From sequence record PV683228.1: DNA of 64,000 bases, one strand, 5' to 3'. Shown piece after piece: positions 36,343 through 41,472 of the stretch. The notes below the pieces were generated by a model. That model searched no databases. It was not told the origin of the DNA and saw only the letters and a list, made by a program, of their open reading frames with translations. Source of the DNA: Escherichia phage EcF-vB. Positions within the stretch are counted from its first letter, which is position 1. The number at the start of each line of letters is the position of its first letter. The position numbers were made by a program, and so were the translations under genes.

Positions 36343-36418
36343 TGGAGAATCCGAAGGGACTCGAACCCTTATAAACCTGTTTTGCAGACAGGCACATATC
36401 CATTTCTGTCACGGATTC
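36343..36418 (-). tRNA. tRNA-Cys (anticodon GCA)
   Basis: manual fold: acceptor GAATCCG/CGGATTC, anticodon stem CCTGT/ACAGG, loop CUGCAAA, T-arm AAGGG-TTCGAGT-CCCTT, CCA encoded. Confidence 0.75.
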
Positions 36419-36423
36419 AAAAT

Positions 36424-36515
36424 TGGAGGAAGATACCAGACTTGAACTGGTACACCGATTTCTCAGCTACTGGCAGTTTAGCAAACTGCTCCCTTACCTT
36501 TTAGGGTTAATCTTC
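36424..36515 (-). tRNA. tRNA-Ser (anticodon GCT), type II
   Basis: acceptor GGAAGAT/ATCTTCC, anticodon stem GCAGT/ACTGC loop UUGCUAA, 21-nt variable arm, T-arm ACCAG-TTCAAGT-CTGGT, CCA encoded. Confidence 0.75.
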
Positions 36516-36517
36516 CA

Positions 36518-37252
36518 TTATTTCTGTAATGCGTTCTTCATTTCTGGTGTTGCAATAGTGTCGATTACACCAGTTTTGCAAGCATCATCAAACCAGTCTG
36601 GTAAGATACCTGCTAAGAACCCATTGATATTCGTTTTAAGGTACTCTGCAATAAGGGCAGCTTCTTCTTCAATCATCTGCACAACTTCATCTGCATAAGC
36701 TGTAATCTTTGAGATACCTTCATTAATCTTACTAACAGCCTGATTAGCTAAATCAGAAACAGTATCAAGACCCTTATCAATAGCGTCTTGTAAGTCACTT
36801 AACACACCATTAACACCATCTAGTGTACTGTTCATCATGTCAATAGCTTTTTGACCATACTCCGTAGCAACACCCATAATACCACTAAATGGTGTACAAC
36901 CAACTTGCTCCCCTGCTGCACCCATAACATTGGAATAACCCTTTGCTACCTGCATACGTGATGAAAACTCATCAATAGACTTTTGACCATAGTCTGTTAG
37001 GGTCTTAGTAGTTGCTGTAGTGCTTGTCAGACTTGTTGTAAAGCTGTTTAGAAGAACTGTTGTAAGTCCAGCAGCAACAAGTTTATCCTTTATTGTAGGG
37101 TCTGTTACAGAGCTAATAGAGCTTACAAGTGATGTAGAGGCAGCTACGGTTCCACCGAGAACTGCTGCACCAGTAATAAGTGGGTTAGAAAACCCTCTAC
37201 CGGTTTTTAAGAGATTAAAAATCTCCTTACCTTGTTCTGTCATCTCTTTCAT
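36518..37252 (-). CDS. hypothetical Ser/Thr/Ala-rich protein (244 aa)
   Basis: ORF track; intact in left arm, degraded copy at 63668..64000. Confidence 0.55.
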   Translation of the reverse strand: MKEMTEQGKEIFNLLKTGRGFSNPLITGAAVLGGTVAASTSLVSSISSVTDPTIKDKLVAAGLTTVLLNSFTTSLTSTTATTKTLTDYGQKSIDEFSSRMQVAKGYSNVMGAAGEQVGCTPFSGIMGVATEYGQKAIDMMNSTLDGVNGVLSDLQDAIDKGLDTVSDLANQAVSKINEGISKITAYADEVVQMIEEEAALIAEYLKTNINGFLAGILPDWFDDACKTGVIDTIATPEMKNALQK

Positions 37253-37268
37253 TAAGCACCTTTGAAAT

Positions 37269-37344
37269 TGGTAGTCCAGTGGGATTGAACCCTCTTCTCA
37301 TGTTTTTCAGACACGCGCTTTAACCATATAAGCTACTTGGACTA
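37269..37344 (-). tRNA. tRNA-Phe (anticodon GAA)
   Basis: acceptor TAGTCCA/TGGACTA, anticodon stem CGTGT/ACATG loop CUGAAAA, T-loop TTCAATC, CCA encoded. Confidence 0.7.
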
Positions 37345-37349
37345 TAAAT

Positions 37350-37425
37350 TGGGGTGACCTACGGGATTTGAACCCGTATAGACCATGTTCACAGCATGGG
37401 TCATTACCATTTATGATAAGGCCAC
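37350..37425 (-). tRNA. tRNA-His (anticodon GTG)
   Basis: acceptor GTGGCCT/AGGTCAC, anticodon loop CUGUGAA, T-arm ACGGG-TTCAAAT-CCCGT, discriminator C, CCA encoded. Confidence 0.75.
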
Positions 37426-37456
37426 ATTTAAGGACTCTCGTAAGAACCCTTAGAAG

Positions 37457-37532
37457 TGGCAGCGGCATAAGGATTTGAACCTTAATATGACAGCTTCAGA
37501 GACTGCTGCATTGCCAGTTATGCTATACCGCT
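37457..37532 (-). tRNA. tRNA-Gln (anticodon CTG)
   Basis: 76 nt canonical layout; D-stem GCAT/ATGC, anticodon loop CUCUGAA, T-loop TTCAAAT, CCA encoded. Confidence 0.75.
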
Positions 37533-37537
37533 AAATT

Positions 37538-37616
37538 TGGTACTCCATATCGGATTCGAACCGATACATAACACAGATTTTAAGTCTGGCCTCTCTGCCA
37601 ATTGGAGTAATGGAGC
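37538..37616 (-). tRNA. tRNA with Leu anticodon TAA, short variable region (tentative)
   Basis: T-arm ATCGG-TTCGAAT-CCGAT, discriminator A, CCA encoded; anticodon loop read as CUUAAAA with imperfect stem; 5' boundary ambiguous. Confidence 0.5.
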
Positions 37617-37618
37617 AT

Positions 37619-37694
37619 TGGCGGGGGATGTTGGAATTGAACCAACTTCTTCGATTTCAAAGACCGAGGTTTTAACCTTGTAAACTAATCCCCT
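37619..37694 (-). tRNA. tRNA-Gln (anticodon TTG)
   Basis: acceptor AGGGGAT/ATCCCCC, D-stem GTTT/AAAC, anticodon stem TCGGT/ATCGA loop CUUUGAA, T-arm GTTGG-TTCAATT-CCAAC. Confidence 0.7.
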
Positions 37695-37702
37695 TTAAAT
37701 CT

Positions 37703-38260
37703 TTACTTTCTCAGTGGATGAATAAAGAATGCCAACATAACTCTTTCCCTTGAGAATGCTCTTTCTTCTGGGACAACACTTTTTAGTTTCCATCCAACAT
37801 AAATTCTCCAGTAAAACTGTTTACCAAAGACTTTAATTGATGGGATAAAAGCGAATAATCCCCAAGCATTACTGTTCCACATTAGGAGATAACCAGTCTG
37901 ATTATCTTCAGGGTCAGAACTTACGTTGATATTACCTTTCCACTTAGTAACATCTTTTACATCTCTTCCTAATACATGGTAAGAGAAGTTATAAGCTTTG
38001 TTTCTCCAGAGCCATCCGACTCTCTGCATGTAGACACCCAGCTTACCAATCTTTCTAATCTTAGCCCATCGTTTGACGTGGCCTTCATCACCATCAATCG
38101 GGTTGTCATAGGTCTCCATCCATCTGAATCCAAAAGGTAGATGTCCTTTCTTCTCACTGTAGAATGGAACTACAAAAGGTGCTAAGATGACTGCTAGGGT
38201 TGCTGCAATTGGGTCTAGTAAAGCTAAGAAAATCCATGAAGCATACTTCAAATATCTCAT
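37703..38260 (-). CDS. membrane protein (185 aa) embedded in tRNA array
   Basis: N-terminal hydrophobic helix (IFLALLDPIAATLAVILAPFVVPF); copy at 62672..63229 differs by one residue. Confidence 0.6.
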   Translation of the reverse strand: MRYLKYASWIFLALLDPIAATLAVILAPFVVPFYSEKKGHLPFGFRWMETYDNPIDGDEGHVKRWAKIRKIGKLGVYMQRVGWLWRNKAYNFSYHVLGRDVKDVTKWKGNINVSSDPEDNQTGYLLMWNSNAWGLFAFIPSIKVFGKQFYWRIYVGWKLKSVVPEERAFSRERVMLAFFIHPLRK

Positions 38261-40278: not shown

Positions 40279-40353
40279 TGGTAGAAGTGGAGGGATTCGA
40301 ACCCATCGCCTGTCAGATTAAAAGTCTGCACATCACCATTCTGCTACACTTCC
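40279..40353 (-). tRNA. tRNA-Lys (anticodon TTT)
   Basis: acceptor GGAAGTG/CACTTCT, anticodon stem CAGA/TCTG loop CUUUUAA, T-loop TTCGAAT. Confidence 0.65.
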
Positions 40354-40359
40354 ATTAAA

Positions 40360-40500
40360 TTATCTTTGTAGATAAGCTACCCAGACTTGCTTAAGGTCTG
40401 TAGCGATGTGACTTTTTGGGTTTAAATCTAGAATTTACCCTTTCACCCTTTGTGGTCGCATACTCACAGGTAAGCTTAATAACTTATCTACAAAGATAAT
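40360..40500. repeat. 17-bp inverted repeat pair TTATCTTTGTAGATAAG ... CTTATCTACAAAGATAA flanking ~105 bp
   Basis: read directly at 40360-40376 and 40483-40499; internal hairpin CAGACTTGCTTAAGGTCTG plus T-run. Confidence 0.6.
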
Positions 40501-40519
40501 TACCAGACCGTTGTTTATC

Positions 40520-40600
40520 ATCTTAAGTGCTACCATTACACCAACTCGACCTCTGCCGAGTGAAGGAATCGAACCTTCTCCTTTTCTTTACCGAGAAATA
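40520..40600 (-). other. permuted tRNA-like element: T-arm and 3' acceptor strand directly followed by matching 5' acceptor strand and D-arm
   Basis: sense strand reads GAAGG-TTCGATT-CCTTC ACTCGGC A ga G GTCGAGT TG GTGT AATGGTA GCAC; 3' strand ACTCGGC pairs with 5' strand GTCGAGT (6 WC + 1 G.U); flanking 8-bp complementary segments AGACCGTT / AACGGTCT. Confidence 0.4.
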
Positions 40601-40807
40601 GATTGTTTAAGTTTTGCTGTAAACGGTCTTCTGTAAATTTGTTGAGCCAGACCAAGTTTTAAATTTTTCAAAATTAAATTGGCTTGAAATTTTAAGTAAC
40701 TTGCTGTATTTGGTCTTCTGCTCCTTTAAAGAATACTCGTAAGAACTCTTTAAGGGAGGGGCTAAATAGCCCTCTCAAAACATCATTTTGAAATACTTAT
40801 TATAATT

Positions 40808-40885
40808 TGGCGGTTACGAAGGGACTTGAACCCTCATCATCTCCCGTGACAGGGGAGTATTTTAACCATATTAAACTACATAACC
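40808..40885 (-). tRNA. tRNA-Asp (anticodon GTC)
   Basis: acceptor GGTTATG/CGTAACC, perfect anticodon stem CTCCC/GGGAG loop CUGUCAC, T-arm GAGGG-TTCAAGT-CCCTT. Confidence 0.75.
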
Positions 40886-40891
40886 TTTATT

Positions 40892-40979
40892 TGGTGTGCC
40901 GTGTAGGAGTCGAACCTACCGAGTCTCAATGACAAGGGATTTACAGTCCCCACCGCTACCATCTACGGGATAACGACAC
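40892..40979 (-). tRNA. tRNA-Tyr (anticodon GTA), type II
   Basis: acceptor GTGTCGT/ACGGCAC, anticodon stem GGGGA/TCCCT loop CUGUAAA, long variable arm, T-arm GTAGG-TTCGACT-CCTAC. Confidence 0.75.
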
Positions 40980-40988
40980 ATTTAAATT

Positions 40989-41065
40989 TGGCGGTTAGTC
41001 AGGGATTCGAACCCTGTGCCATTCGCTTAACAGGCGACCGCACATACCTTATGTGCTTCCTAACC
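40989..41065 (-). tRNA. tRNA-Asn (anticodon GTT)
   Basis: acceptor GGTTAGG/ACTAACC, D-stem GCAC/GTGC, anticodon loop CUGUUAA, T-arm CAGGG-TTCGAAT-CCCTG. Confidence 0.75.
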
Positions 41066-41142
41066 TTAATACATTGCCAGACCGTGTTTTTCTTTATCCG
41101 CAAAAAGTAGTTTTTGTTGCTGGATACGGTCTTCTGCAAATT

Positions 41143-41219
41143 TGGAGGCGGGTGCAGGAGTCGAACCTGCCGATACCATGCTAATGAGACATGTGAGACG
41201 CCCTTTCTCTATACCCGCA
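41143..41219 (-). tRNA. tRNA-Met or Ile2 (anticodon CAT), second copy
   Basis: D-stem AGAG/TCTC, anticodon stem CATGT/GCATG loop CUCAUUA, T-arm GCAGG-TTCGACT-CCTGC; 1-72 pair mismatched. Confidence 0.65.
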
Positions 41220-41310
41220 ATTCTTAATGACCAGACCAAATCTCTTCTTTGTCCGATTTACCTTCAGATGAATAAGATTAAGTTTGCTGTAATTGGTCTT
41301 CTGTCAAAAC

Positions 41311-41388
41311 TGGCGTTCCAGAAGGGATTTGAACCCTCAGATATCCACTTTGAAAGAGTGGTGACTTTACCATTTCGTCTACTGGAAC
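41311..41388 (-). tRNA. tRNA-Glu (anticodon TTC)
   Basis: acceptor GTTCCAG/CTGGAAC perfect, perfect anticodon stem CCACT/AGTGG loop CUUUCAA, T-loop TTCAAAT. Confidence 0.8.
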
Positions 41389-41395
41389 ATTAATT

Positions 41396-41472
41396 TGGTC
41401 TCTGTTGGAGGACTTGAACCTCCGGCCTTACCGCCCCAAACGGAACGCTCTACCAAGCTGAGCTAAACAGAG
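41396..41472 (-). tRNA. tRNA-Pro (anticodon TGG)
   Basis: acceptor CTCTGTT/AACAGAG perfect, D-arm GCTCAGCTTGGTAGAGC, loop UUUGGGG, T-arm GGAGG-TTCAAGT-CCTCC. Confidence 0.75.

Follow-up and report, generated by a model that had tools for sequence, protein, structure and literature searches.

The transfer RNA gene array of Escherichia phage EcF-vB: a Felix O1-like cluster, a probably artefactual inverted copy and a tRNA-Trp-like gene

When a phage sequence holds the same array of transfer RNA (tRNA) genes twice, once with and once without a block of six genes, do the two copies divide the work between them, and does the set serve all 20 amino acids? The question is raised by a stretch of 64,000 nt from Escherichia phage EcF-vB (sequence record PV683228.1; the whole stretch is called the window here, and its coordinates are 1-based on the strand shown), which carries one array in a left arm and a second, partial copy in an inverted right arm. 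An earlier examination of the letters, referred to as the sequence-only reading, had folded 27 tRNAs covering all 20 amino acids, found 19 of them in the right arm, and proposed that the set is complete only because the left arm retains the block that the right arm has lost.

Here we place the array among its relatives, weigh the origin of its second copy, and describe the element on which the count of 20 amino acids depends. Taken jointly, the results favour an ordinary Felix O1-like tRNA array whose second, partial inverted copy is an artefact of assembly or sequencing and not a property of the phage, a reading to which we assign a probability of about 0.72.

The array and its relatives

The array is the standard Felixounavirus tRNA gene cluster, that of the virulent Felix O1-like myophages, and is already known (published descriptions give 22-26 tRNAs and 19 amino acids). 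The region 36000-42500 is matched by 348 phage records at 80-96% identity, 235 of them spanning 80% or more of the region in one place, and the close matches are almost all Felix O1-like phages from Escherichia, Salmonella and Shigella. Over 6.5 kb the array is 94-96% identical to at least 235 Felixounavirus genomes, each of which has it in a single copy. It is flanked by a DUF2828/'RNA-binding protein' gene and by the terminase large-subunit gene terL (coordinates of all features are given in Table 1), and the layout is alike in FelixO1 and in phage pinkbiff. All 26 tRNA genes predicted by ARAGORN are found in pinkbiff in identical order, FelixO1 (which lacks Arg-tct) has 25 of the 26, and other relatives have 23-25; every related genome examined contains one array with the same genes. 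Shigella phage Sf14 is described with 26 tRNAs for 19 amino acids (PMC12482277) and FelixO1 with 22 tRNAs (PMC3185647), while the counts of 17-23 published for Felixounavirus arrays differ by tool (PMC8300805). In phage Mordin (contig L006, 450-1199), ARAGORN reports a 750-nt 'tmRNA*' that runs across several tRNA genes and is almost certainly a false positive.

In the order given by ARAGORN, the left array encodes Cys, Ser-gct, Phe, His, Gln-ctg, Leu-taa, Gln-ttg, Arg-acg, Leu-caa, Val-tac, Thr, Gly and Ala (genes 1-13), followed by Lys-ctt, Leu-tag, Ser-tga, Arg-tct, Ile-gat, Met-cat, Lys-ttt, Asp, Tyr, Asn, Met-cat, Glu and Pro (genes 14-26). No Trp is among these 26 ARAGORN tRNAs at 36343-41472(-), so that automated prediction returns 26 tRNAs and 19 amino acids in place of 27 and 20, and the 27th (Trp) is reached only if the non-canonical gene described below is counted. 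The gathering score of the Rfam tRNA family RF00005 is reached by 24 of the 26 left tRNAs, the other two being Tyr (40892-40979) and a CAU tRNA (41143-41219), and by all 18 canonical tRNAs of the right arm.

Three isotype calls had been marked as tentative in the sequence-only reading. Anticodons back the assignments to Val (tac) and, for three genes, to Leu (taa, caa, tag); the Trp call is made by neither ARAGORN nor RF00005, though covariation supports a cloverleaf with a CCA anticodon. For the Sf14 orthologues, tRNAscan-SE isotype scores rank Leu first for all three Leu genes (PMC12482277). In the same phage, 14 of the 26 tRNA genes are 'inconsistent' with the isotype models (PMC12482277), and isotype assignment in this phage group therefore rests on the anticodon.

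The three 'Leu' tRNAs (37538-37616, 38469-38546 and 39048-39124, minus strand) are just 77-79 nt long and so have no long variable arm of the kind usual in bacterial tRNA-Leu; the Leu-taa of Pectobacterium phage Wc4 has 87 nt. The CAU tRNA at 41143-41219(-) has a U1.C72 mismatch and U37, and its sequence does not decide between Met, Ile2 or another identity. Neither of the two CAU tRNAs has the initiator-type GGG/CCC, and the published isotype scores of their Sf14 orthologues are inconsistent (PMC12482277).

The inverted copy and its missing block

Window positions 1-36928 correspond to FelixO1 (NC_005282.1) from ~66.8 kb down to 29.6 kb, reversed. Positions 36929-50136 carry on to FelixO1 13917, and from 50137 the direction flips, running from FelixO1 12902 forward to 29594. 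This mapping in three parts, with its turn at 50137, makes the left and right arms inverted copies of the same stretch, at least 13 kb, of the Felixounavirus genome. The join 50136|50137 is asymmetric (FelixO1 13917 | 12902) and falls 134-199 nt inside the record starts of several relatives. Two of these, D4 and H12, come from a study reporting direct terminal repeats by PhageTerm (PMC11737134). In D4, I14.1 and GE_vB_7A, the start-region stretch occurs at two places, and is therefore probably part of a direct terminal repeat. Just past the join, the non-coding stretch 50137-50640 carries repeated AAAGGGCTAT-type motifs; its equivalent in several relatives is the region in which their records start (positions 134-199). 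The repeat_regions annotated near the equivalent of the junction in pinkbiff and heid were considered and set aside, being short repeats and not terminal repeats.

Within the window, the right arm has 18 canonical tRNAs, and the Trp-like element brings this to the 19 tRNAs counted before; Cys and Ser-gct would fall past base 64000. Pairwise alignment of the arms, which the sequence-only reading had named as a check, reproduces the limits of the ~1.06-kb deletion placed at left 40825-41886, whose length is exactly 1062 nt with the junction at 60107|60108 (blastn, MAFFT). The deletion takes out Tyr, Asn, Met(CAU) (the Met/Ile2 gene of that reading), Glu, Pro and all of Asp except its last 17 nt, and the right copy of the DUF2828 gene (471 aa when intact) loses its last ~80 codons. 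The block is present in FelixO1 and in a metagenome relative, and the gap in the right arm is therefore a derived deletion. An 80-nt query across 60107|60108 is nowhere covered to 80% in 249 matching phage records, and the junction sequence is absent from IMG/VR contigs. Most likely, the loss of the six tRNAs from the right arm is an assembly or sequencing artefact.

The inverted duplication as a whole is covered in one place by none of 305 matching phage records. The sequence of the inversion junction is absent from three collections (viral, metagenome and genome contigs), and nothing was found for it in complete E. coli genomes; looking up exact protein matches gave just short contigs that are unrelated. 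From left 41887 to ~49215 (7.3 kb), alignment of one arm with the other gives 0-2 substitutions, according to the alignment used, and ~12 indels of 1-2 nt. The arms thus differ nearly only by indels, which is the signature of error rather than of divergence. When polarised against FelixO1 and ENA contig L002 jointly (L002 alone is too divergent to serve as a close outgroup), 26 changes are private to the right arm and 9 to the left arm. The endolysin and open reading frame (ORF) 28 are broken on the left, with a further 718-nt loss of ORF31-33, and ORF30, ORF41, DUF2828 and ORF49 are broken on the right. Damaged tRNA copies are found in both arms: private changes affect the right-arm copies of His, Phe, Gln-ttg and Lys-ctt, and the RF00005 scores of the two copies (left vs right) are 43.6 vs 54.4 bits for Lys-ttt, 53.3 vs 33.0 for His and 56.9 vs 52.1 for Lys-ctt. 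The last ~850 nt of the left arm are 75-77% identical to FelixO1 with 39-43 gaps, as against 91% for the right copy. Along 49280-50136, identity to the partner decays from 100% to ~70% and all ORFs are lost (homologues of ORF24/25), a stretch that resembles an uncorrected long read by the join.

Damage of the same kind is found in the single-copy part of the window. Frameshifts interrupt the terminase (34305-35900, three), ORF57 'tail protease' (30245-30617, two), DNA ligase (7537-8633, one) and DNA polymerase (3316-6032, one), and the aligned pieces of these genes are 87-100% identical to FelixO1 proteins. Such a terminase is incompatible with a viable phage, which means that the sequence contains errors, and the whole window appears to be of draft quality.

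By inference from these results, the duplication is probably artefactual in origin. A draft assembly, probably built from long reads and possibly after amplification, would have joined a copied stretch of at least 13 kb at 50136|50137, near the physical end of the genome, through a chimera or a fold-back, and its consensus would carry many indel errors and two dropped segments. The 'loss' of the six tRNAs would then be a defect in the right copy of the sequence, and the arms would not share out any task. Multiple displacement amplification (MDA) classically produces inverted joins with a short offset. For phage DNA prepared by MDA and read by nanopore, 50-60% of reads were found to be chimeric (PMC13108922).

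Some features weigh against an artefact. The two clean deletions (~0.7 and 1.1 kb) are atypical of base-calling errors and might reflect real variants present in a minority of molecules, the fold-back symmetry of the join is imperfect, and a real snap-back or otherwise rearranged defective genome would look alike if poorly sequenced. In one rival account the inverted duplication is genuine: snap-back or template switching during replication, close to the end of the genome, would have produced a rearranged or defective Felix O1-like genome, with two diverging ~13-kb copies that carry different deletions and with frameshifts that reflect poor sequencing. This account is slightly favoured by the reciprocity of the large deletions, since each gene has at least one copy outside them (though ORF25 is incomplete in both arms), and by the 5-nt microhomology ATGTC flanking the left-arm deletion; the position of the join near a physical end, where replication and recombination intermediates occur, also fits. 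Nevertheless, we consider it unlikely: no relative among the 305 has the arrangement, the junctions are unique to the window sequence, the arm differences are indels almost throughout, essential single-copy genes are damaged equally, and the extra 13 kb or more must fit a capsid that normally packages ~86-89 kb (by record lengths). A genuine viral inverted repeat would be looked for in relatives, and its arms would show divergence-like differences alongside intact genes elsewhere; neither was found here.

An origin of the arms from two co-occurring related phages, one of them without the six-tRNA block, followed by mis-assembly would make the right arm a natural tRNA-poor variant. Felixounavirus arrays do vary in content, as seen in the missing Arg-tct and the HNH insertions of FelixO1 and in the published counts of 17-23 (PMC8300805). 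However, the arms show 0-2 substitutions over 7.3 kb whereas distinct isolates differ by 4-6%, which makes a two-strain chimera unlikely; moreover, the deletion cuts into tRNA-Asp and truncates a conserved gene, and the 60107|60108 junction is in no public genome searched (249 phage records, IMG/VR). We regard this origin as very improbable.

The claim that the set is complete only through the left arm holds in a literal sense, as the six tRNAs do occur once in the window sequence. A biological reading, with a two-armed genome whose tRNA set is 'rescued' by one arm, is not supported in view of the single array of the relatives, the absence of the inverted duplication from the 305 records, the frameshifts, and the private indels and large deletion found in each arm. 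Until the assembly has been verified, arguments on tRNA dosage or redundancy should not draw on an 'arm that lost six tRNAs', and the window serves as a warning that this sequence needs re-assembly. One candidate precedent, Salmonella phage GE_vB_B3 (MG969406.1, 'UNVERIFIED', 109 kb), was rejected, as its 13-kb end duplication is direct and noisy and not inverted (copies 9401-22420 and 96101-109375, 97% identical with 242 gaps); it is a further noisy, over-assembled Felixounavirus genome.

The Trp-like element

Whether the array reaches 20 amino acids depends on an element with the sequence ATGGGAC GATGTTAA GACTC TAAGGCAT GAGC A ACGGC TTCCAAC ACCGT TTCAA AGGGG TTCAACT CCTCC GTCCCAT G CCA. It has counterparts in 238 phage records; when the distant Yersinia phage P778 or the Pectobacterium phage Wc4 is compared, the element alone aligns and its flanks do not. 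In none of the 60 rows listed is it annotated as a tRNA, being either unannotated or overlapped only by a 'hypothetical protein'. A related record (L072) has an HNH-type insertion at its site.

Twelve distinct homologues were aligned (alignment A1, covariance model R1). Unguided RNAalifold on this alignment gives a four-helix cloverleaf. In the structure assigned here, the paired share of cells is 99.6%, and compensatory double changes are seen at 8 of 20 pairs; when the pairing partner is slid by 1-3 columns as a control, there are no compensatory changes. The CCA anticodon, U33, A37, the D-loop GG, the discriminator G73 and the 3' CCA are invariant in 12 of 12 sequences, the T-loop TTC(A/G)A is kept in all of them, and pair 1-72 is A-U in 7, G-U in 3 and G-C in 2. 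Recognition by E. coli tryptophanyl-tRNA synthetase (TrpRS) follows anticodon CCA and G73, with a minor part for A1-U72, and both of the former features are present throughout A1. We conclude that the element is best regarded as a derived tRNA-Trp-like gene under structural selection, whose RNA may be charged with tryptophan.

The identity as Trp is further supported by two related genes. In wV8-type phages, the same site is occupied by a different tRNA(CCA), which has a 3-bp D stem and a 5-nt D loop and is also missed by ARAGORN. It shares with the element the CCA in a CUCCAAA-type loop, A1-U72, G73, an encoded 3' CCA and the site between Arg-tct and Ser-tga, and differs in its shortened D arm, its 71-nt length and its RF00005 score of 33.2 bits, which reaches the gathering score. 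In the sister-genus Erwinia phage phiEa21-4, an annotated canonical tRNA-Trp (NC_011811.1 24578-24653) is the top R1 hit in the array, at 37 bits. It has the CUCCAAA-type loop with CCA, A1-U72, G73, the GGC-CUCCAAA-ACC arm and the 31-39 mismatch in common with the element, unlike which it is a normal 76-nt tRNA without an encoded 3' CCA. Relative to both genes, the element stands apart by its 83 nt, its 7-9-nt connector, its 8/4 stems and the absence of an RF00005 match.

In geometry, the element departs from canonical tRNAs by a predicted 8-bp acceptor stem, a 4-bp T stem and a connector of 7-9 nt, GATGTTAAGA, placed before the D stem. The eighth acceptor pair (G8-C) is predicted, its columns being invariant, and with a T stem of 4 bp the acceptor and T stack comes to the canonical 12 bp. 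Position 31-39 is a C.A or C.C mismatch, which leaves a 9-nt open anticodon loop. Bacterial tRNA-Sec also has an 8-bp acceptor stem, and RF01852 (tRNA-Sec) is the sole Rfam resemblance of the element, a weak one at 16.9 bits and E=0.46, against a tRNA-Sec gathering score of 47; tRNA-Sec is unlike the element in its anticodon (UCA, not CCA) and in its long variable arm, which the element lacks.

Instead of a decoding tRNA, the element may be a tRNA pseudogene in decay, or a tRNA-like RNA that acts otherwise (as processing signal, decoy or binding site for a protein), in which case the array would serve 19 amino acids, the published number. We give this account about an even chance. The element has no RF00005 match at E<=10 and no ARAGORN call at default settings, and it was skipped in both of the tRNAscan-SE-annotated records checked (CHB7, Sf18). 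Its wV8 counterpart carries a pseudo-tRNA annotation. We know of no precedent for the 7-9-nt connector or the 31-39 mismatch in a working bacterial-type tRNA; these, like the 8/4 stem geometry, speak against decoding. The connector is invariant, and its conservation beyond that of any stem hints at a constraint unrelated to tRNA function. Yet compensatory changes would not persist in all four helices of a pseudogene, nor would decay leave the invariant CCA anticodon, U33, A37, G73, CCA, D-loop GG and T-loop TTCRA intact across several genera whose flanks have diverged past alignment, and the closest match is the canonical tRNA-Trp of a sister genus.

Tentatively, and with somewhat less confidence than an even chance would express, Felixounavirus, Mooglevirus, Suspvirus and unclassified Yersinia and Pectobacterium phages may encode a working, aberrant tRNA-Trp. 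Were this RNA to work, the arrays of these phages would cover 20 amino acids and not the published 19. If charged, it would be a natural case of how far the tRNA core may change and yet stay usable, which matters for how well tRNAs can be detected, for their engineering and for the ways in which phages escape host defences directed at tRNAs. The gene itself is modestly new, and the finders tried (default ARAGORN, RF00005) miss it.

Three other features proposed at this site were rejected. A 'tRNA-Pyl(cta)' at 39508-39579 (ARAGORN -ps80) folds no better than shuffled sequences, and its register conflicts with the covarying helices. A pairing of the connector TAAGAC with the 3' trailer GTCTTA, present in the window, is not kept in P778, Wc4 or contig L043. 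For a promoter-like site at 39597-39569, upstream of the gene, no claim is made, as 11 such sites were found vs 11.6 expected in shuffled sequence.

Neighbouring genes, function and known systems

The DUF2828/DUF7788 gene beside the array is labelled 'RNA-binding protein', 'vWFA protein' or 'DUF2828 family protein' in relatives, and its conserved adjacency to the array might mean a tRNA-related role. Two sets of direct repeats lie elsewhere in the window, one inside a tail-fibre gene (14015-14106 and 14687-14778, 78% identical and 672 nt apart) and one inside a 377-aa tail protein (45282-45636 and 45783-46025), a homologue of which in a related contig has immunoglobulin-like (Ig-like) domains.

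Table 1. Coordinates of the array, the inverted arms and related features. Positions refer to the window unless another record is named.
Feature	Position	Strand	Remarks	Basis
Left tRNA array	36343-41472	-	26 canonical tRNAs, 19 amino acids, plus Trp-like element	ARAGORN, Rfam, order as in pinkbiff/FelixO1
Protein genes inside left array (two)	36518-37252, 37703-38260			
Trp-like gene, non-canonical tRNA-Trp(CCA)-like	39483-39565	-	83 nt; 13 nt upstream of tRNA-Ser(tga)	Covariance model R1, 109.9 bits; RNAalifold
Right copy of Trp-like gene	61368-61450	+	Identical to left copy	
Six-tRNA block, left arm only	40808-41472	-	Asp-gtc, Tyr-gta, Asn-gtt, Met/Ile2-cat, Glu-ttc, Pro-tgg	
Segment without right-arm counterpart	40825-41886		1062 nt; tRNA-Asp interior to DUF2828 gene interior	blastn, MAFFT, junction sequences
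Right-arm deletion junction	60107-60108		Followed by 17-nt remnant of tRNA-Asp 3' end; no useful microhomology	
Right (inverted) array copy	60579-63664	+	18 canonical tRNAs	ARAGORN
Left arm	36929-50136		Outer limit beyond reach, as partner runs off window; 49280-50136 is a degraded copy	
Single-copy centre	50137-51185	+	Contiguous with right arm; FelixO1 12902-13950	
Right arm	51186-64000		Cut by window end	
718-nt segment, right arm only	54181-54898		Homologues of FelixO1 ORF31-33; derived deletion in left arm at 47094|47095, ATGTC microhomology	
Terminase large-subunit gene	34305-35900	-	4 pieces in 3 reading frames; single-copy part	tblastn
DUF2828/DUF7788 ('RNA-binding'/vWA) gene	41638-43053	-	471 aa, intact; right copy 58942-60110 frameshifted, last ~80 codons gone	
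wV8-type 71-nt tRNA(CCA)	L060:12394-12464, L067:12388-12458, L073:12619-12689, NC_012749.1 27798-27868		Pseudo 'tRNA-OTHER'	RefSeq

The array may help to sustain translation once the tRNAs of the host have been depleted or cleaved. It would top up or replace host tRNAs for the AT-rich codon usage of the phage, the G+C content of the window being 39% and that of the host ~50% (PMC3185647). Both the FelixO1 and the Sf14 papers conclude that subsets of the tRNAs serve codons that the phage uses more than the host does (PMC3185647, PMC12482277). From published work on this phage group and from general phage biology, we infer that the array functions in codon supply, possibly under host attack on tRNAs.

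The duplication is comparable to the inverted chimeras of MDA and the fold-back artefacts of long-read sequencing, sharing with them an inverted join, a ~1-kb offset, errors that are mostly indels and, by the join, a raw-read-like stretch. Such artefacts do not as a rule come with two clean deletions of 0.7-1.1 kb. The large tRNA clusters of T4-like and T5-like phages, which are presumed to serve codon supply and resistance to host tRNA depletion, belong to another phage lineage with another gene order and are compared by description only. They resemble the window in having packed, co-oriented tRNA genes in a virulent, AT-rich phage, with small ORFs in between and homing endonucleases in relatives.

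The array itself is matched by the clusters of Felixounavirus/Ounavirinae (FelixO1, wV8, Sf14, pinkbiff). The FelixO1 array carries three insertions of HNH homing-endonuclease genes between its tRNAs (25030-25515, 26003-26395 and 27313-27726, compared with window 38796-40195), of which the window array has none, and a partial second inverted copy is seen only in the window; in site, genes, order and level of identity (94-96%), these clusters and the array of EcF-vB are alike.

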